From a virus: a stretch of DNA of 41,358 bases. The stretch lies in IMG/VR virus record IMGVR_UViG_3300025586_000002; one strand, given 5' to 3'. The notes under the pieces were generated by a model. It was not told the DNA's origin and searched no databases. It saw only the letters and a list, made by a program, of their open reading frames with translations. The position numbers and the translations under genes are program-made. Below are positions 1-41,358 of this stretch, in pieces. Position 1 is the stretch's first letter, and every line of letters begins with the position of its first letter.

Positions 1-127
1 ATCAAACAACACACTTCTTAAAGGTAATACTTTATGTGGACCACACTTCGCATAATGTAAATCACAAATGTGGACCACACATAGACGGGGGGAGGGTAGG
101 GAGAGTTGAACAGGAGAGGGGGATATA
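1..127. repeat. Terminal redundancy: bases 1-127 are identical to 41232-41358 (direct orientation)
   Basis: Read directly: atcaaacaacacacttctta...caggagagggggatata occurs at both window ends. This implies a complete circular or terminally redundant genome with about 41,231 bp of unique sequence. Confidence 0.95.
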
Positions 128-489
128 TATTATGATACTACACATACACTCACTCGTACTACATGCAGACACTTACTAATAAGCTTGTAAGAGGTGCAAT
201 ATAGTTATGACAATCCAGTACCCCTTAGGGGAATAAAGTTATCAACTCTATTAGCCATTGTCTCTTGGTAGAGTTTAAGTACATCACCTATCTCATTGGT
301 CTGGTTAGCCGTTGAGTCGGGAACCCGTGATACCTCAGGTTTTAACCTTACCCCTTTATTTAGAATTCTGCAAACTAGTATGCTTGGCGTTTATTTATAG
401 TGGTCAATTCCAGACTTGTCGCTGTAAGGAAACCTACAAGCCAGTACCCTGCCACTTATTAACTAGTATGTGCTGCACCTCTTGACTAC

Positions 490-517
490 ATAATATCAGA
501 ACCGCATATCTTGTCAA
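490..517 (-). promoter_or_regulatory. sigma70-like promoter pointing leftward into the ORF-free junction region
   Basis: Minus strand: TTGACA (517-512), 16-nt spacer, TATTAT (495-490). No ORF lies downstream until the minus-strand terminator at 40762-40785 across the junction. Confidence 0.5.
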
Positions 518-634
518 TAGCAGAAGCTTATTATTCCGCTGTGAGATATTCTTTTTAAAAGCATAAAACTGTTCTTTTTGTGCTTAAAATAAGGTATATC
601 GTAAGCATTTTCGGCGTTTTAAAGTTGACAACAT

Positions 635-663
635 TTGACATCTGCCAGCGGACAAGTTATACT
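635..663 (+). promoter_or_regulatory. sigma70-like promoter heading the plus-strand gene block
   Basis: TTGACA (635-640), 17-nt spacer, TATACT (658-663). A second TTGACA lies at 625-630. The first ATG (671) sits about 8 nt after the -10, so the message would be nearly leaderless. Confidence 0.7.
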
Positions 664-670
664 TGCACAA

Positions 671-865
671 ATGCAAAAGACTCATAAACTATTTAGAAAA
701 ATAAAAATACACACTTTAGACATAGGGCTTATTAAACTTAGCTCGTTTGTTTTTGGAATGGCTACGGTTTTAATCTTTCCATCTTTGCTTGGACTAAGGA
801 CTGACACACTTATCTTGGTTGGACTTATAGCTGCTATTCATCCTATTATAGTGTGGTTCAAGTGA
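671..865 (+). CDS. small hydrophobic protein (64 aa from the ATG at 671; the ORF track starts it at a TTG at 635)
   Basis: In-frame ATG directly after the promoter. Two hydrophobic stretches (SSFVFGMATVLIFPSLLGL, LILVGLIAAIHPIIVWF). Confidence 0.4.
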   Translation: MQKTHKLFRKIKIHTLDIGLIKLSSFVFGMATVLIFPSLLGLRTDTLILVGLIAAIHPIIVWFK

Positions 866-1251
866 TGGCTAAAGGAAGAACAACAGAAAAAAGAATAGAA
901 GCATTGTTTAAGGAGTTCATGGAGAGGGCTACTTCTGGTGAGAAGATGAACATGTATCAGTATCAGCTGGATAAAGGATATTCTCATTCTTCTGCTAAAG
1001 CATATAAGTTAGCAGGAACAAAGTCTTGGTTAAAGTGTCTTGATAAGATAGACGACTCTGCTCTGGCTAATCGCCTTGTAGATATTTCTAAAGGTGGAAC
1101 CGACCAAAACTCTATTCGTGCGATACAAGAACTTTTTAAGCTTAAAGGAAGATACCCAAAAGAAGGTAGGGGGATAGGTATTAAAGACGAAATACTAGAA
1201 CTTTTTGAAGAAGGCGACTACGAAGAGCAAGAACCAAAACAACTAAAATAA
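865..1251 (+). CDS. hypothetical protein with an acidic C-terminal tail; possible small terminase subunit by position only
   Basis: ATG at 865 overlaps the upstream stop. It is the first sizeable gene of the packaging/structural operon. No diagnostic motif recognised. Confidence 0.35.
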   Translation: MAKGRTTEKRIEALFKEFMERATSGEKMNMYQYQLDKGYSHSSAKAYKLAGTKSWLKCLDKIDDSALANRLVDISKGGTDQNSIRAIQELFKLKGRYPKEGRGIGIKDEILELFEEGDYEEQEPKQLK

Positions 1252-1267
1252 ACATTATAGACAAATT

Positions 1268-2287
1268 ATGAAAGAATATATGCCAGGGCAAACAACTAAA
1301 AAAGAGGTTTTATTGATTACGGGTGGTGCAGGCTTTGTCGGCTCTCATATGGTAGAGGGGGTGTTAAAGAACACTGACTGGGATATTATTATATTAGACA
1401 GACTTGATTTGTCTGGAAACTTACATCGTTTATTAGACATTGACATCTGGGAAAAAGAAAAGAACAGAGTTAGTTTTTTATGGTGGGATTTAAAATCTGC
1501 ATTGAATGTGCCGATTAAAGCAGACTATGTATGGCATTTAGCCGCATCAAGCCATGTAGACCGTTCAATAGAAGACCCTTGGTTATTTGCGATGGACAAT
1601 GTAATTGGAACTGTTAATCTTTTACAAGCCTGCCGAGAGATGAATCCAAAAAGAATTATTTATTTCAGTACGGATGAAGTGTTCGGAACAGCACCAGACG
1701 GGGTAGACTACAAAGAATGGGATAGATATAACTCAGGTAATCCGTACTCTGCATCAAAGGCGGGGGGAGAAGAGTTTGCATTAGCGTTTGCTAACACATA
1801 CAAGTTGCCGATTATAGTGACACACTCGATGAACATCTTCGGCGAAAGACAACATCCAGAGAAGTTTATACCTTTAGTTATTAAGTGTGCGTTGAAAGGA
1901 GAGAAGGTGTTTATTCACGCTTCAGAAGATAAAAAGAGAGCAGGACAAAGACATTACTTACACGCAAGAAATATATGTGCCGCACTTTTATTCTTAACAG
2001 AGAATGGTAAGTGTTTAGACGGTTCAGGAAAACAAGGTAAATATAACATAGTGGGGGAGGAGGAAGTAGACAACCTTACATTAGCAAAGATGATTGCCGA
2101 TATACTTGGTAAGAAGTTAGAATATGAAATGGTGGATTTTCATTCCAGCAGACCAGGTCATGATTTACGATATAGTTTATCTGGAGAGTTATTAGAAAGC
2201 GAAGGATTTTCATATCCAAAGAGTTTTAGAAGTAGCTTAGAGAAGGTAGTGCAATGGTATCTTTATCGTCAAATTTGGCTGGAATAG
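1268..2287 (+). CDS. NAD-dependent NDP-sugar 4,6-dehydratase/epimerase (extended SDR, RmlB-like)
   Basis: Rossmann motif GGAGFVGSH. Also HLAASSHVDRSIEDP, STDEVFG, catalytic YSASK and HPEKFIP, all characteristic of dTDP-glucose 4,6-dehydratase-type enzymes. Confidence 0.75.
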   Translation: MKEYMPGQTTKKEVLLITGGAGFVGSHMVEGVLKNTDWDIIILDRLDLSGNLHRLLDIDIWEKEKNRVSFLWWDLKSALNVPIKADYVWHLAASSHVDRSIEDPWLFAMDNVIGTVNLLQACREMNPKRIIYFSTDEVFGTAPDGVDYKEWDRYNSGNPYSASKAGGEEFALAFANTYKLPIIVTHSMNIFGERQHPEKFIPLVIKCALKGEKVFIHASEDKKRAGQRHYLHARNICAALLFLTENGKCLDGSGKQGKYNIVGEEEVDNLTLAKMIADILGKKLEYEMVDFHSSRPGHDLRYSLSGELLESEGFSYPKSFRSSLEKVVQWYLYRQIWLE

Positions 2288-2290
2288 AAT

Positions 2291-3169
2291 ATGGATTTAG
2301 TATCTTGTGTCCATATAGAGACAACAGAAAGCTTTAATAATGGATTAGAGACCTTTGAAGGTAATTTATACATCACAGATGACTCTTGTGGTAAGTATAA
2401 ATACCCTTTTGAGGTTTTAGATTACAGAGACTTTCCGCTTTTTAAGTATTTACACAAGTCTTCTGCGTCAAAAAACTATGCTCTTTACAAATCTAAAGCA
2501 GATATAGTCTTTATTATTGACTCAGATTGTGTGATTGAACCAGATTTTCAAGATAAACATCTTGATGCACTGGACACAGAAGGTTGTTTGTGGGATAATC
2601 CTTTAGAAAACACAGGATTTTATCCAAGAGGTTTTCCTTATTCAGCAAGAGACAAGAGAGTTGTCGCAAATGTAGGTCTTTGGACAAATGTACTTGACAT
2701 AAATGGTGCGGATAGAAGTAAAAACGAGCCAAACAAACCAGAAATAACTGGAACTCGTGTATCAACTTCTTTTGTTCCATTTTCTGGTATGAATGTTGCT
2801 GTTAGAAGAGAAGCAATACCAGCATTATTCTTTCTACCGAACATAGGAAATTTTAAAAGACACGATGACATATTTGGCGGATACATATTTCAATCAATAG
2901 TAAAGAAAAAAGGAGATTGTATTACTTACGGGGAACCGTTTGTTAAACACGAAACCTTTATTATTTCAGAAGAAGATGCCGAAGACGAATTAGAGATGAA
3001 CGAGTATCAAGATAAGTTCTGTCAAGTAGTAGATACTGCTATTGCAAAGATAAAACCTACCACTTACGCAGATATGTACAAGCAGTTTGTAAGAAAAGTC
3101 AAGTTTAGTGGAAGATTTAAAGGATTTAATAAACCTATAAGAATATGGAGCAACTTATTTCGTGGGTAG
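2291..3169 (+). CDS. GT75 / reversibly-glycosylated-polypeptide (RGP, UDP-arabinopyranose mutase)-like protein
   Basis: IDSDCVI (DxD), RGFPYSARD, NVGLWTNVLDINGAD, FSGMNVAVRRE and RHDDIFGGY parallel the plant RGP blocks DDDCF, RGYPFSLR, SHGLWLNIPDYDA, CGMNLAFDRE and RYDDMWAG (recalled from memory). Confidence 0.5.
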   Translation: MDLVSCVHIETTESFNNGLETFEGNLYITDDSCGKYKYPFEVLDYRDFPLFKYLHKSSASKNYALYKSKADIVFIIDSDCVIEPDFQDKHLDALDTEGCLWDNPLENTGFYPRGFPYSARDKRVVANVGLWTNVLDINGADRSKNEPNKPEITGTRVSTSFVPFSGMNVAVRREAIPALFFLPNIGNFKRHDDIFGGYIFQSIVKKKGDCITYGEPFVKHETFIISEEDAEDELEMNEYQDKFCQVVDTAIAKIKPTTYADMYKQFVRKVKFSGRFKGFNKPIRIWSNLFRG

Positions 3170-3855
3170 TATGTACATATAACCGAACTCCACTAACAGA
3201 ACAGTTTATGGACCACAACCTGGCAAGACTTGGAACAACAAGACCAGAGTTAATATGGATAGACAATAGTTCAACAGATGGCGTGGAGAGACTATGGGAT
3301 AAGTATAACCCAGACATAATCATTAAAAGACCAAACGATTGCCTTAGCAAGTCAAAGAACGCCGCTTACGCTGTTTGTAGAGGAGACTGGATTATAGATT
3401 TAGAAAATGATTTCTTAATGCCAGATAATTGGTTGCCAGAAATGTTAGAATATGGCAAAGCGATTGAAGGCACAGGTATAATGGCAACAATGGTTGAGAG
3501 GTGGGATGCAATTTTAACATTAGAATACACAACACCAAAGTCAATTATAAATGGAAAGGAAGTTATAGTGTGTAGAGCAATAGGTCCAAGAATCTTCAGT
3601 AGAGAAGTATTCAAGAAGTGTGGATTTTTAATAGAAACATATGGACTTTATGGAGATGAAGATATTGAAATAAGTGATAGAGCCGCAAATGCTGGACTTA
3701 TAAATTATATTATTCCTTCAATAACTGGAATACACGCTGGTAATGGGGAGTGGGATATGGGAGAATATAGAGCAGCAAAAGACGAAGGACTACACCACCC
3801 AAAAGTTAAACTTCCAGAAGGACAACTTTATTTTAATCCATTTGTATGCAGGTAA
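3145..3855 (+). CDS. family-2 (GT-A fold) glycosyltransferase
   Basis: N-terminal ISWVVCTYNR, then IDNSSTDG and a DLEND DxD-like motif. Overlaps the upstream gene by 25 nt. Confidence 0.7.
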   Translation: MEQLISWVVCTYNRTPLTEQFMDHNLARLGTTRPELIWIDNSSTDGVERLWDKYNPDIIIKRPNDCLSKSKNAAYAVCRGDWIIDLENDFLMPDNWLPEMLEYGKAIEGTGIMATMVERWDAILTLEYTTPKSIINGKEVIVCRAIGPRIFSREVFKKCGFLIETYGLYGDEDIEISDRAANAGLINYIIPSITGIHAGNGEWDMGEYRAAKDEGLHHPKVKLPEGQLYFNPFVCR

Positions 3856-4274
3856 TTATTCCAGGAACATTTGATTTATTACACGAAGGACATAAAGAGT
3901 TAATCAGGTTTGCTCTGTTAATTAGTAAAGATATTATAATCACAATTAACGGCGATAAGTTTTCTAAACTTTTAGGAAAGAAAACAAGTCAGACCGAACA
4001 AGAAAGACTTAAAGGATTAAAAGATTTTATTAACTGCCCTGTTTATATTGTAAACTCTGAATCTGAATCTTTAAAAATAGCGATAGACAACGCACCTTGT
4101 TTCAGACTTACAGGAGATGACTGGGATATTAGCAAAACAAGTAAGAGGTGTGGCGTTGATAGAAGTTTTTGGAAAAGAAATAACATCTATCTTATTTATA
4201 AAGACAGAGTTCCCAACATAAGCAGCACAAAATTAAGAAATGCCCAGACCAAAAGTAATACTGTATCCATTTAA
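3846..4274 (+). CDS. cytidylyltransferase-family nucleotidyltransferase (TagD / glycerol-3-phosphate cytidylyltransferase-like)
   Basis: GTFDLLHEGH (HxGH signature) near the N-terminus and ISSTKLR near the C-terminus. Confidence 0.7.
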   Translation: MQVIIPGTFDLLHEGHKELIRFALLISKDIIITINGDKFSKLLGKKTSQTEQERLKGLKDFINCPVYIVNSESESLKIAIDNAPCFRLTGDDWDISKTSKRCGVDRSFWKRNNIYLIYKDRVPNISSTKLRNAQTKSNTVSI

Positions 4275-4806
4275 AGCAGGACCATTAGATGGAAAAAACT
4301 GGAAAGAAACACTTGATACTGGGATAAAAGAACTTAAAGACTTCAACTGGCAACTTGGTTTTGGAACATTGCTTGGAATGGTCAGAGATAAGACAGTAAT
4401 TCCGCACGATTTAGACTTAGACATAGATGTAATGATGGAAGATGAATACAAGCCGAACACAGATGCACTTCATCAAAGTTATTTAACAAAAGGATTTCGT
4501 CTTATTAAGATGCAAGAGTGGGGTGGTTTAATAATGTCGTTAGCCTATATGCACGAAAAGACGAATGTGATATTTGACATCTGTTTCTTTTATGGTATAT
4601 GGGGTGATGATTTTCTACACCTTGGAAGTGACGGAATTGTTATCAGACCGAGATGGACCTTAAAAACTATTAAACTACTTGGATACAACATACCTGAAAG
4701 ATATGATGATTATCTTACAGGAAGATATGATGATTGGAGAACTCCAGTTTCTGGGAAAAAAGATTGGTTTGATTACGCTAATAAATACTTTATAAAATAT
4801 GATTGA
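4240..4806 (+). CDS. LicD-family phosphotransferase (phosphocholine / polyol-phosphate transferase fold)
   Basis: GFGTLLGMVRDKTVIPHDLDLDIDVMM matches the LicD core GTLLGAVRhxGFIPWDDDIDV. Confidence 0.6.
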   Translation: MPRPKVILYPFKAGPLDGKNWKETLDTGIKELKDFNWQLGFGTLLGMVRDKTVIPHDLDLDIDVMMEDEYKPNTDALHQSYLTKGFRLIKMQEWGGLIMSLAYMHEKTNVIFDICFFYGIWGDDFLHLGSDGIVIRPRWTLKTIKLLGYNIPERYDDYLTGRYDDWRTPVSGKKDWFDYANKYFIKYD

Positions 4807-6067
4807 AAAACCAAAAGTAATTAACGATTTAAAACTCCAAGAAAAGATTGGTTGGACTCCACACAGTGGTCAGAAAAAGATTATAGACTGCCACGCAAGA
4901 GAGAAGATTATATGTGCAGGAAGAAGATTTGGGAAAAGTGATACTTGTGCTTATGAGATAGTAAAAGACGCACTTTTAGGAGATAGAAGAATATGGATAG
5001 CCGCACCTTCTTATGAACTTTCTAAAATAGTGTTTGACAGGGTAGTTATATTTCTTTCAAAAGTAATTAGCCCAAGTCATTTCAGAATACAGATGAAACC
5101 ATTTCCAACACTTACGCTGACTAACGGAAGTATTATTGAAGGAAAGTCGTGTGAGGCAAGGTCTGGTATGCTTGGTAGGTCTACTAACTTAGTAGTAATA
5201 GACGAAGCAGCACTTGTAGATGAGAACATCTGGCAACAATATATCAAGCCAACAACACACGAACAAAAAGGTAGAGTTGTTTATATAGGAACACCAAGAG
5301 GATTAAATTGGTTTTATGATAAGTTCCTGGAACTTCAAATAAAACACACAGCGTTTCAATTCAAGACTTCTGACAACCCATTGTTTGACTTAGTAGAATA
5401 TAATAAAGCAAGAGAGAGTCTGCCAGAAAAGGTTTTCGCACAAGAATACGAAGCAGAGTTTTTAACAGAAGCAGGATTAGTTTTTAGAGGAATAGACTTA
5501 ATTGTTGACGATACTTTGGCAGAACCAGTATTGGGAACAGCATATATATTAGGAGTGGACATAGCAAGGCATACAGACTACACAGCTTTGACTGTAATGG
5601 ACAGAACAACCAAGAAGGTAGTTTATCTCGACAGGTTCAAAGAACTTGATTATCCATACCAAAAACAACGCATTTTAACATTATCACAAAAATATAATAA
5701 CGCAAAAATAATAATAGATTCAACGGGCATGGGAGATAGCGTGGCTTCAGACCTAATGCGACAAGCGTTTGTAGAAGAATACCCACTATACAGCCATAAA
5801 GCAAAACAACAACTAATAGATAGACTTATAATCTTTATCGAACAAAGGGTTATAAGGATACCAAATAACGAAATACTTATAAATGAGTTAAAAAAATACG
5901 AGGTAAAAGTTTTAGAAGCGTCTGGAAAGTATAATTATTCAGCACCAAGAAGTGGGCACGATGATATGGTTATATCATTAGCACTAGCAACTTGGGGATT
6001 ACAGCCGAATAAACTATCAGACGTAGAAGAAACAGAAACCATAATAAAGCACAATGACTACGAATAA
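4799..6067 (+). CDS. terL: terminase large subunit
   Basis: Walker A-like AGRRFGKS and Walker B VVIDEAA. C-terminal nuclease acidic motifs GVDIARHTDYTAL and GHDDMVISLALA. The portal gene follows immediately. Confidence 0.9.
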   Translation: MIEKPKVINDLKLQEKIGWTPHSGQKKIIDCHAREKIICAGRRFGKSDTCAYEIVKDALLGDRRIWIAAPSYELSKIVFDRVVIFLSKVISPSHFRIQMKPFPTLTLTNGSIIEGKSCEARSGMLGRSTNLVVIDEAALVDENIWQQYIKPTTHEQKGRVVYIGTPRGLNWFYDKFLELQIKHTAFQFKTSDNPLFDLVEYNKARESLPEKVFAQEYEAEFLTEAGLVFRGIDLIVDDTLAEPVLGTAYILGVDIARHTDYTALTVMDRTTKKVVYLDRFKELDYPYQKQRILTLSQKYNNAKIIIDSTGMGDSVASDLMRQAFVEEYPLYSHKAKQQLIDRLIIFIEQRVIRIPNNEILINELKKYEVKVLEASGKYNYSAPRSGHDDMVISLALATWGLQPNKLSDVEETETIIKHNDYE

Positions 6068-35200: not shown

Positions 35201-35228
35201 AGTATATCAAATCTAAATTATTTGTCAA
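35201..35228 (-). promoter_or_regulatory. sigma70-like early promoter
   Basis: Minus strand: TTGACA (35228-35223), 16-nt spacer, TATACT (35206-35201). The -35 plus stop is encoded as cttgacaaataa (Leu-Asp-Lys-stop). Confidence 0.7.
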
Positions 35229-35508
35229 GCGTTTGTCTTATTGTTAAATTATTAAGTGCATCCATAGTTCCTTCAAACATTTCTGGCATTTCCTTTTTGG
35301 AAAACTTTTCAATCGAGAAGCACCAAAAGATGCTACTCTTTTTTAACCTCATAACATAACCTGCTTTTTCCATTTCTACTAAGAAGAACCTTACACCCTC
35401 TCTGGTTATATTAAGTTCTTTTCCTATAAAAGCATAAGTTGGCGGTTTTCCTTTCTCTAACAGGTGCTTTGTGTATATGTTGTATATTTCTTCGTATCTT
35501 GTTTTCAT
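35218..35508 (-). CDS. winged-helix/HTH DNA-binding protein (candidate transcription regulator)
   Basis: YAFIGKELNITREGVRFFLVEMEKAGYV is an HTH-like segment. Confidence 0.5.
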   Translation of the reverse strand: MKTRYEEIYNIYTKHLLEKGKPPTYAFIGKELNITREGVRFFLVEMEKAGYVMRLKKSSIFWCFSIEKFSKKEMPEMFEGTMDALNNLTIRQTLDK

Positions 35509-36995: not shown

Positions 36996-37472
36996 CTAAC
37001 GGCTTTTTACCTCTTTATAGCAGTTATTCCACGGCTTCCAACCTCTCGCTTCATATAATGAGAAAGCAAAGGAAATGTTATTAGCTGGAATCCTCAGCCA
37101 ATCTGCTGTCGGTCTGCTGTTAACAAGGTTTCCATAAAGGTTAATCTGAAATAGTCCGTGAGAGTTATCCCTTGTTCTTCCTGTAAGGTTATGAGCATCG
37201 CTATCGCCTGAGCTCTCACAGAGCATAATCGCATAAGCAATGTCTGTGTTCCAATCATATTGGGCTATTATATTATAGTAAGCGTCTATTATGTGGTCCA
37301 CATTTTTATTGCCTAGCGTTTGGCTTTTAATAAAATAAGGCGGACTTACTGCGTAGACATACATATCACTTTCATTGTAGTAGTTTATAGGTTCTTCGTC
37401 CTCGCTAAACACAGTCCTATAAAGCAAAACTACTGAGATTAAAAGAAAGGATAATAAGATTATTTTTTTCAT
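36996..37472 (-). CDS. secreted or signal-anchored lysozyme-like transglycosylase
   Basis: N-terminal MKKIILLSFLLISVVLLY. The catalytic-region pattern AIMLCESSGDSDAHN...SHGLFQIN is typical of transglycosylase-like/SLT domains. Confidence 0.6.
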   Translation of the reverse strand: MKKIILLSFLLISVVLLYRTVFSEDEEPINYYNESDMYVYAVSPPYFIKSQTLGNKNVDHIIDAYYNIIAQYDWNTDIAYAIMLCESSGDSDAHNLTGRTRDNSHGLFQINLYGNLVNSRPTADWLRIPANNISFAFSLYEARGWKPWNNCYKEVKSR

Positions 37473-40359: not shown

Positions 40360-40402
40360 TCTATTAAACTATTGTTTATAATGTCCGACCTTTACTACTT
40401 TA

Positions 40403-40430
40403 AGTATATACATATACAAAAGTTTGTCAG
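40403..40430 (-). promoter_or_regulatory. sigma70-like early promoter
   Basis: Minus strand: CTGACA (40430-40425), 16-nt spacer, TATACT (40408-40403). The leader contains AAAGGTCGGAC. Confidence 0.6.
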
Positions 40431-40435
40431 GTCCT

Positions 40436-40639
40436 TTACATTAACTTTTCACAAGCAATGAAAAAGTTTTTTAATGTTTTATTATTAGCCCTAATATCAT
40501 CTGCTTTTTCTAAACGCTTTTTCAACTCAAGTAAAAATATTGTCATATTATAACCTTCTTTTTCTATCTGCTTTCGATTAAATGGCATTTTAACTTTTGT
40601 TTCTTTACTATATTCTAAAATGATTTCTTTTAGTTTCAT
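40436..40639 (-). CDS. hypothetical protein; first gene of the early block
   Basis: AAAACTATG start 54 nt downstream of the promoter at 40694-40722. Confidence 0.6.
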   Translation of the reverse strand: MKLKEIILEYSKETKVKMPFNRKQIEKEGYNMTIFLLELKKRLEKADDIRANNKTLKNFFIACEKLM

Positions 40640-40693
40640 AGTTTTATACTTAGTTTTATGTTGCTTTATATTCGACCTTTTGCTTATACTAGA

Positions 40694-40722
40694 ATTCTAT
40701 ATTATTTTTGAAAGTTTGTCAA
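40694..40722 (-). promoter_or_regulatory. sigma70-like promoter heading the early block
   Basis: Minus strand: TTGACA (40722-40717), 17-nt spacer, TAGAAT (40699-40694). The leader contains AAAAGGTCGAAT. Confidence 0.7.
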
Positions 40723-40761
40723 GGGGTAAAACAATAAACAAGCAAATAGAAAAAACTCTGT

Positions 40762-40785
40762 CATTAAACAGAGAATAGATTTAAT
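40762..40785 (-). terminator. intrinsic terminator on the minus strand just upstream of the first early promoter
   Basis: Minus strand: CTCTGT-ttaatg-ACAGAG hairpin (40785-40768) followed by U6 (40767-40762). The plus strand lacks a U-tract. Confidence 0.55.
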
Positions 40786-41055
40786 ATAAGAGAATAAGAG
40801 AAAAGCTCCGGACCGGAGCAAAACAAAAAAACTTATACAAAAGCAGAAGCCGTCAAGGTACTACAATGCCAAAAGAGAATATAAACGCCTTAGAGAGCAA
40901 ATAAGAACGATAAATAAAATGCCTTATTCTCAAAAAGCATGTTATCGGTAAGAAAAGAGGTAAAGTATAGCAAACACGCCAACAATAGAATTAAAGTATT
41001 ATAAGATGTTAAATAATGTTAAATGATATTATAAAAATCCGGCGCCTTAAAGAAA

Positions 41056-41310
41056 TGTGAACCACATATTAAACAATAGACAATATAGAAGAGAAAGACT
41101 AAGCTAAGAAAGATATTATTCTATTAAAAGCAATAGATAGTAATGTGAACCACATAAATGAATGTAAATGTAGTCTTAATGTATCTTGTATTAGCATTTT
41201 GTCTAACCCACAACCACATACTTCGCATAACATCAAACAACACACTTCTTAAAGGTAATACTTTATGTGGACCACACTTCGCATAATGTAAATCACAAAT
41301 GTGGACCACA
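41056..41310. repeat. array of TGTGRACCACA iterons (partial inverted repeats)
   Basis: tgtgaaccaca at 41056-41066 and 41144-41154. tgtggaccaca at 41266-41276 and 41300-41310 (the same as 35-45 and 69-79). A degenerate copy, cacaaccacat, lies near 41208. The exact reverse-complement copy tgtggtccaca is at 37292-37302. Confidence 0.75.
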
Positions 41311-41358
41311 CATAGACGGGGGGAGGGTAGGGAGAGTTGAACAGGAGAGGGGGATATA
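41232..41358. repeat. Terminal redundancy: identical to 1-127
   Basis: See the feature at 1-127. Confidence 0.95.

Follow-up and report, generated by a model that had tools for sequence, protein, structure and literature searches.

A conserved G-rich motif ahead of the terminase genes as a candidate DNA-packaging site in the non-coding junction of an uncultured phage genome

The window analysed here is the whole 41,358-nucleotide stretch of the IMG/VR virus record IMGVR_UViG_3300025586_000002, and the element in question is a short G-rich motif, the G-box, located in a non-coding gap at the junction of its two ends. The unit genome measures 41,231 bp, to which the window adds an exact repeat of the first 127 bp, an overlap that had been given without error in an earlier description made from the letters alone (hereafter, the sequence-only reading). 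The plus-strand late (structural) genes extend from 865 (or 671) to 27580 in the order 128-amino acid (aa) protein, sugar-modification cassette, TerL (4799-6067), portal, capsid, SU10-type adaptor and tail proteins. The minus-strand early genes extend from 40639 down to 27652 and encode many small proteins together with Erf, two exonucleases, NinG and an SLT-like lysozyme. The gap studied is the place where both arms diverge on the circular map, and this junction was traversed by independent assemblies (Logan, ENA MEGAHIT and JGI) at 99.4-100% identity. With its SU10-type adaptor and portal folds and its T4-type terminase, the phage is podovirus-like and belongs to an uncultured group.

The sequence-only reading had described an open reading frame (ORF)-free region of about 1.1 kb across the junction. 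The lack of credible ORFs was borne out, as only short ones with GTG or TTG starts (42-61 aa) lie between 40639 and 865, but the gap was found to be larger, about 1.45 kb from 40640 through the junction to 864, with the uncertain ORF 635/671-865 left uncounted. Gene calls on the independent assemblies also left 40640-864 empty except for two, both made on JGI contigs only: a 76-aa ORF at 635-865 (contigs L006, L116, L118, L122 and L125) and a 61-aa minus-strand ORF (L116 and L122) that corresponds to the GTG ORF 41124-41309. A coding function for 128-640 was rejected when tblastx between four regions of the window's clade revealed no coding-like conservation, as was a 17-aa minus-strand ORF of the window whose start codon was seen by eye to be missing in the relatives L009 and L012. 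A search of the region for tRNA and tmRNA genes returned none, and neither half of it had a blastn match among 50,697 phage records.

The G-box is present as a single copy in the window genome, its first 41 nt also closing the window at 41318-41358, and its two G-runs account for the G-tract that had been pointed out in the junction. At least 16 lineages of uncultured phages carry the motif (the window, L009, L010, L012, L099, L020, L013, L017, L019, L036, L111, L113, L114, L014, L127 and L146), with TerL proteins 39-68% identical to that of the window. All TerL relatives in this range of identity are uncultured, the best cultured matches being Thermus, Tunturiibacter and T5-like phages at 25-33%. 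The core of the motif consists of 6-9 G followed by A, with 10-12 nt in all up to AGT plus C, T or G. In the window's clade, a second G-run, TATTAT(C/G)ATA and (C)CCATACACAC come after this core, and in the more distant lineages a C-run and ACAG. After the second G-run of the window there is a short, 15-bp AT-only run (123-137), of which the core TATTAT(C/G)ATA is conserved in the clade.

In every one of these lineages the G-box lies on the TerL-coding strand and upstream of TerL, and wherever gene calls or ORFs were examined it was found within an ORF-free gap upstream of the terS-like gene, the homologue of the window's 128-aa gene. A hidden Markov model (HMM) built from four sequences recovered L099 (E = 8e-8), L020 (6e-3) and L013 (0.056) in 0.83 Mb of unrelated loci, and a metagenome scan with a strict G-box pattern gave 15 matches, of which 13 were chance, one was L009's own contig and one was a new member (L099). 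The G-box is the only non-coding sequence conserved across the lineages and its flanks are unalignable between them, indicating that the motif itself is under selection. The repeats located just upstream differ among the lineages read: palindromes in the window, AACAATG in L009, a 36-nt repeat in L010 and a 24-nt repeat in L014.

The surroundings of the motif follow a common architecture. From left to right, minus-strand small genes with TTGACA promoters are followed by an A-rich, T-poor ORF-free gap, lineage-specific repeats, the G-box, a late promoter of the sigma-70 type and the gene for a homologue of the 128-aa protein. Over the 400 nt that precede the G-box, the sequence is A-rich, T-poor and G-poor in 12 of the 13 related lineages measured. 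In the window, 65.8% of the bases of 40740-41040 are purines, a value reached by only 32 of 4,106 windows of 300 nt (top 0.8%). The tract had been called strikingly A/G-rich, and it is indeed purine-rich, but the excess is one of A over T and not of G. The 128-aa gene is homologous (26-43% identity) to the genes found at the same place in L009, L010, L012 and L014, and in L014 the terS-like gene overlaps the start of TerL.

The G-box and the repeats beside it are interpreted here as a DNA-packaging recognition or terminus site (cos, pac or the boundary of a terminal repeat), to which we give a chance only slightly short of even. This role is suggested by a motif that is single copy and fixed in orientation, that fronts the terminase genes at the boundary between early and late arms, the kind of place where T7 has its ends, and that is accompanied by repeats of its own in each lineage read. 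The junction core is most likely a cis-acting DNA site rather than a structured RNA gene, and the pairing of lineage-specific repeats with the G-box recalls a specific binding site placed beside a cutting site that is conserved. The sequence-only reading had proposed either one long minus-strand non-coding RNA (ncRNA) or an origin and/or pac region. The second was the better proposal and, within it, packaging is favoured over replication because the conserved single-copy G-box lies upstream of the terminase genes and has lineage-specific repeats.

Under the packaging interpretation, the terminase would recognise and cut replicated DNA here, either at a site of the cos/pac type or where a short terminal repeat begins or ends. 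Conserved machinery (TerL or a portal-proximal complex) would recognise the conserved G-box, and a fast-evolving small subunit or some other DNA-binding protein of the phage would recognise the lineage-specific repeats. With the G-box as its starting point, packaging would proceed rightward through the terS-like gene, so that the early arm would be packaged last and injected first. Two terminators that work on the minus strand only (40819-40746) would halt transcripts coming from the right before the early promoter (40722-40694). The minus-strand promoter probably yields an unstructured non-coding transcript of ~0.9 kb across the G-box, which we consider secondary: it could represent transcription through the site, or its promoter could be left from a lost accessory gene.

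Several observations weigh against a packaging site. The 128-aa protein, encoded where a small terminase would be expected, received no support for this identity from Pfam, PHROG, PDB or Foldseek, and its assignment as such was not accepted after PDB profile searches (E >= 0.17) and Foldseek with a single-sequence model of pLDDT 68 (E >= 1.9). The G-box of the window shows no dyad symmetry, unlike lambda cosN; no twofold symmetry of a nicking site was found in it, and 87-137 has no complementary C-run, whereas some relatives do pair the G-run with a C-run. Many TerL relatives at ~40% identity have G or C runs that are only loosely similar to the motif. The length of the overlap, 127, is a common assembler k value, and two circular-looking assemblies of the same genome are cut elsewhere, at ~20 kb (L003) and ~28.4 kb (L116). 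Finally, a replication origin would fit these features about as well in several respects.

The ends of the contigs were also considered. As 127 is a standard k value, the overlap is probably the k-mer overlap of a circular assembly, and a true 127-bp terminal repeat was considered a less likely alternative in view of this value and of the two other cuts. The first base of the MEGAHIT contig L008 coincides exactly with window position 1, which lies 86 nt before the G-box, and over its first 196 nt the contig is identical to the window; this could be a hint of a genome end. The hint was given little weight because of the cuts at ~20 and ~28.4 kb, the value of k, and the clustering of contig ends at or near 40362-40991. 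Six ends of other assemblies fall within less than 900 bp (40362, 40459, 40497, 40873, 40991 and 1), in a part of the genome where the G+C content decreases to 24-25% (around 40400-40700), and low coverage at low G+C is a simple explanation for them. The clustering of breaks in the very AT-rich 40362-40991 thus weakens the L008 coincidence and counts as a further point against a terminus at this place. The coordinates of the features described here and below are collected in Table 1.

Table 1. Features of the junction and related sites, in window coordinates (promoters and terminators are predicted)
Feature	Position	Strand	Remarks
G-box	87..137	+	G6 87-92, AGTT 104-107, G5 118-122, TATTATGATA 128-137; CA-rich to ~160
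Terminal overlap	41232..41358		Exact match, identical to 1-127
First conserved late gene	865..1251	+	128 aa, all-helical; small-terminase candidate by position only
First early-operon promoter, TTGACA-17-TAGAAT	40694..40722	-	11/12 consensus; into 67-aa gene 40639-40436
Extended -10 promoter, TTGACA-16-(TG)TATTAT	490..517	-	11/12 plus upstream TG; aimed at G-box/junction
Late-operon promoter, TTGACA-17-TATACT	635..663	+	11/12; divergent from 517-490
Terminator-like hairpin, CUCUGUUUAAUGACAGAG then UUUUUUCUAU	40746..40773	-	Minus strand only; hairpin 40756-40773, tail 40746-40755
Second terminator-like hairpin, GCUCCGGUCCGGAGC then UUUUCUCUUA	40795..40819	-	Minus strand only; contains palindrome 40805-40819
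A-rich, T-poor tract	40740..41050	+	AT skew +0.4 to +0.5
Palindromic site, copy 1, ATGTGAACCACAT	41055..41067		Putative protein-binding site
Palindromic site, copy 2, ATGTGAACCACAT	41143..41155		Putative protein-binding site
Palindromic site, copy 3, ATGTGGACCACAC	41265..41277		Putative protein-binding site; same DNA as 34-46
Palindromic site, copy 4, ATGTGGACCACAC	41299..41311		Putative protein-binding site; same DNA as 68-80; 7 nt upstream of G-box
Fifth palindrome copy, ATGTGGTCCACAT	37291..37303		Perfectly symmetric; inside SLT-like lysozyme gene, early arm, 3.8 kb off cluster
Two ~23-nt direct repeats, CAYACTTCGCATAAYRT.AA.CA	41217..41295	+	Copies 41217-41239 and 41273-41295
Split inverted repeat, left arm (TAATAAGCTT..AAGAGGTGCA)	177..198		Pairs with 474-483 and 524-533
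Split inverted repeat, right arm	474..533		Split by 40 nt bearing minus-strand promoter

The repeats upstream of the window's G-box had been reported as at least four TGTGRACCACA iterons. The four copies are present in the gap, at 41056, 41144, 41266 (=35) and 41300 (=69), with a fifth at 37292, and when one mismatch was allowed the genome gave 13 matches against 0.89 +/- 1.03 in shuffled sequences, none of 100 shuffles reaching 13. However, the copies are perfect or near-perfect dyads of the form ATGTGG-A-CCACAY spaced at 88, 122 and 34 nt, and at least three direct repeats in one orientation and with regular spacing were not found in the gap. No cognate initiator gene was found at or next to them among the 30 proteins scanned. 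The term iteron is thus wrong in detail, since the repeats are palindromic and no initiator gene is present, and from their symmetry they look like sites for a dimeric protein.

The junction could also be an origin of replication, an explanation that we regard as rather unlikely. The palindromes would bind a phage or host initiator, the AT-only stretch 123-137 would unwind, and transcription from 517-490 across the G-box would activate or prime initiation, as in lambda ori activation, ColE1 RNA II or mitochondrial CSB II. Such a role would agree with five statistically unexpected copies of a binding site, four of them within 260 bp, with the junction between a G-run and an AT-run (the G-tracts being G-quadruplex-capable in several lineages), with a conserved asymmetry in strand composition that stops at the G-box, and with a promoter aimed at the site in four lineages. 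Moreover, no polymerase, primase, helicase or replication initiator could be recognised among the 30 window proteins scanned, so that the host would have to drive initiation at a site in cis. However, the repeats are dyad-symmetric and irregularly spaced, no initiator gene is adjacent, and the minus-strand promoter with its 350-nt segment is absent in distant lineages that retain the G-box. Transcription from 517-490 would give a C-rich RNA across the G-box, and RNA of this composition forms the less stable kind of RNA:DNA hybrid. The conservation, moreover, follows the terminase genes in position and orientation.

The symmetry of the sites is also compatible with a regulatory spacer, in which the palindromes would be operators for a repressor-like helix-turn-helix protein (e.g. 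the product of 35218-35508) and the G-box would act as an insulator or as a Rho-loading (rut) region separating early from late transcription. Apart from the perfect dyads, this explanation is backed by the minus-strand copy of the G-box, which is C-rich, G-poor and unstructured like rut sites, and by the lineages L111, L113, L114 and L014, in which the G-run pairs with a downstream C-run showing compensatory changes and a U-rich tail on the minus strand. We nevertheless find it very doubtful. The four clustered palindromes all lie clear of strong promoters, 330-590 bp from the early one; the C-run partner is lacking in the window and in L012; and the late promoter can be as close as ~60 bp to the G-box or as far as ~510 bp from it. 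In the distant relatives, moreover, no minus-strand promoter is evident in the interval from the G-box to the terS-like gene, and hence no obvious minus-strand transcript that the G-box could stop.

Promoters and terminators were called as matches to consensus sequences, applying for sigma-70 the rule of -35 and -10 hexamers separated by a spacer of 16-18 nt. Promoters of the TTGACA type similar to that of the first early operon head the minus-strand gene arm in the relatives as well. The promoter at 490-517 was confirmed as near-consensus, and equivalent promoters, also minus-strand and of the extended -10 type, were located at the corresponding place in L009 (1048-1020), L010 (1670-1642) and L012 (515-487), three lineages that also share the back-to-back arrangement with the late promoter. 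A GC-containing hairpin followed directly by a U-tract was found at two sites, 40819-40795 and 40773-40746, in both cases on the minus strand only, and the 91-nt stretch that includes both hairpins folds at -17.6 kcal/mol (z = -3.6). The terminator with U6 on the minus strand, which had been placed at 40762-40785, was therefore present but at a different position. The palindrome that had been reported at 40805-40819 was found there as GCTCCGG-A-CCGGAGC (7+1+7, with the central base unpaired). The G-box itself was also considered as a plus-strand promoter (TTGAAC-16-TATTAT, 106-133) and rejected: only the -10-like box, without the -35, is conserved in the window's clade, and its spacing from the conserved AGTY differs by several nt between lineages.

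Given the conserved position of the promoter in L009, L010 and L012, a minus-strand transcript of ~0.9 kb probably exists, and the two terminators, which would stop it just before the early promoter, make the unit a coherent description of the signals. It is quite improbable, though, that the main product of the region is a functional ncRNA, running from ~483 through the junction to 40805 or 40756 and perhaps controlling, for instance, packaging or the switch from early to late expression. On its side are the quality of the promoter (11/12 plus TG) and its retention in three relatives, the two minus-strand-only terminators just ahead of the early promoter, the absence of ORFs and of coding conservation and, between L009 and L012, conserved blocks, among them a 27-mer identical in both, and one hairpin in which four pairs are compensatory. 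However, searches with these blocks by nhmmer found nothing else, the covariance model built from both lineages missed the window and L010, and the four-way consensus fold was empty. In Rfam, neither the window nor any of four relatives had a match at the gathering score, and relaxing the limit to E = 10 for both halves of the region yielded nothing but noise. The stretch 128-540 of the window folds no better than shuffled sequences on either strand (z +0.2 and +0.8). Among contigs encoding identical proteins, identity in the region is never below 99.4%, which leaves no covariation to analyse.

Outside the G-box, the sequence of the putative transcript is unconserved, and the segment of ~350-500 bp behind the promoter is missing in the more distant lineages. 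A natural strain (L003, sample ERZ27316110) carries A495C in the -10 element, which alters the first T of the hexamer; no other base differs from the window in the 2.2 kb compared around the junction. Furthermore, if virion DNA ends in the junction, there would be no transcript until the genome is circularised or concatemeric. Hence, of the ~0.95-kb minus-strand ncRNA put forward by the sequence-only reading, the promoter, its conserved position and the terminators stand, whereas a functional structured RNA is unsupported.

The same promoter in L010 drives a gene for an 83-aa protein, another point against an RNA product. This protein (L010:1070-1321, minus strand) has two CxxC pairs and the motif RISGYLRP, with Pfam NRDD on record, and it resembles the C-terminal zinc-ribbon and glycyl-radical segment of the anaerobic ribonucleotide reductase NrdD, here as a protein of its own. 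Its gene sits between the G-box and the late promoter, while the equivalent promoter of the window has no ORF behind it, which suggests that this site is a slot for accessory cargo.

There is, lastly, a slight probability that the G-box is a transcription-coupled initiation site, in which the untranslated RNA from the conserved promoter 517-490 would stall or form an R-loop in the G/C block and either prime DNA synthesis by a host polymerase or license cutting by the terminase. If this were true, a phage without recognisable replication genes would rely on an RNA-DNA element like those of ColE1 or mitochondrial CSB II at its packaging site.

With respect to known systems, the closest architectural analogue of the window junction is the left end of T7 (read from NC_001604), where a 160-bp terminal repeat containing CCCCCATAGGGGG (C5-ATA-G5) is accompanied by a CCTAAAG repeat array, the leftward host promoter A0 and a first gene at 925. 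Both have a non-coding stretch of ~0.9 kb heading a gene arm, repeats beside it and a host-type promoter firing back toward the genome end. They differ in that there is no sequence similarity, TerL is unrelated at the family level used, the site of the window lies between two arms and next to the terminase genes, its repeats are palindromic, and its terminal repeat is only a candidate. In lambda, the cos region consists of cosQ, cosN and cosB upstream of Nu1 (terS). Like it, the window has a single-copy site directly upstream of the small-terminase position, with a conserved core beside phage-specific protein-binding repeats; unlike it, the G-box lacks rotational symmetry, the repeats lie on the side of the core away from the terS-like gene, contrary to cosB, and cohesive ends are only hypothetical. 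With the lambda origin, ColE1 RNA II and mitochondrial CSB II the junction shares clustered repeats, a G-run by an AT-only stretch, and a promoter ~350-400 bp off aimed at the G-rich block. In contrast to them, its repeats are palindromic, it has no cognate initiator gene, the RNA across the G-box would be C-rich and not G-rich, and some distant relatives retain the G-box but lack the promoter.

The stretch is therefore an ordinary kind of element, a non-coding phage junction with packaging, origin and transcription signals, in which the motif itself is new: as far as the libraries searched show, the G-box was previously undescribed. In genomes available only from metagenomes, the end positions and the packaging signal are normally unknown, and as a consequence "circular" contigs are taken at face value. 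A short searchable motif provides a testable candidate packaging or terminus site for the whole group of at least 16 lineages, and a landmark with which their genomes can be oriented and compared. It would leave the current understanding of phage biology unchanged unless transcription-coupled initiation were true.

Regarding the neighbouring genes, the two proteins flanking the gap have no IMG/VR relatives, and a protein search with the 128-aa protein returned only itself. A five-gene sugar-modification cassette occupies 1268-4806 of the window, between the terS-like gene and TerL, and includes an NAD-dependent epimerase/dehydratase, RGP-like and family-2 glycosyltransferases, a cytidylyltransferase and a faint LicD. 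The content of the cassette varies in L009, L010, L012 and L013, and in L014 and L015 the terS-like gene directly overlaps TerL. Three large proteins of the late arm, of 861, 565 and 1371 aa, had no match when scanned against PHROG. As for the relatives, short TerL-relative contigs (L126-L128, L134, L146, L147, L155 and L157) were binned into metagenome-assembled genomes of the candidate phyla radiation (Dojkabacteria, Paceibacterota, Parcubacteria, Saccharibacteria and Peribacteria) and one of "Firmicutes", which is a weak hint at their hosts.

Among the minor repeats, the first copy of the ~23-nt direct repeat contains window position 1. The split inverted repeat is made of two perfect 10-mers per side (10/10 each) enclosing ~275 bp, and could be either what an inserted element left behind or, in a plus-strand RNA, a helix formed over a long range. 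Two observations concern the late promoters. The -10 box ends 7 nt before an ATG in the window (671) and in L009 (1089, the start of the terS-like gene; L009:1076-1091), so close that the first late message of both phages may be leaderless, a spacing not seen in L010 and L012. In L012, the divergent promoter pair at 487-549 forms a near-perfect large palindrome (CCCTATTATAGCATA ... TATGCTATAATAGGG) around AATCAA-GGGGG-TTGATT, in which the two promoters mirror each other and the 5-bp G-run between the -35 boxes is common to both.

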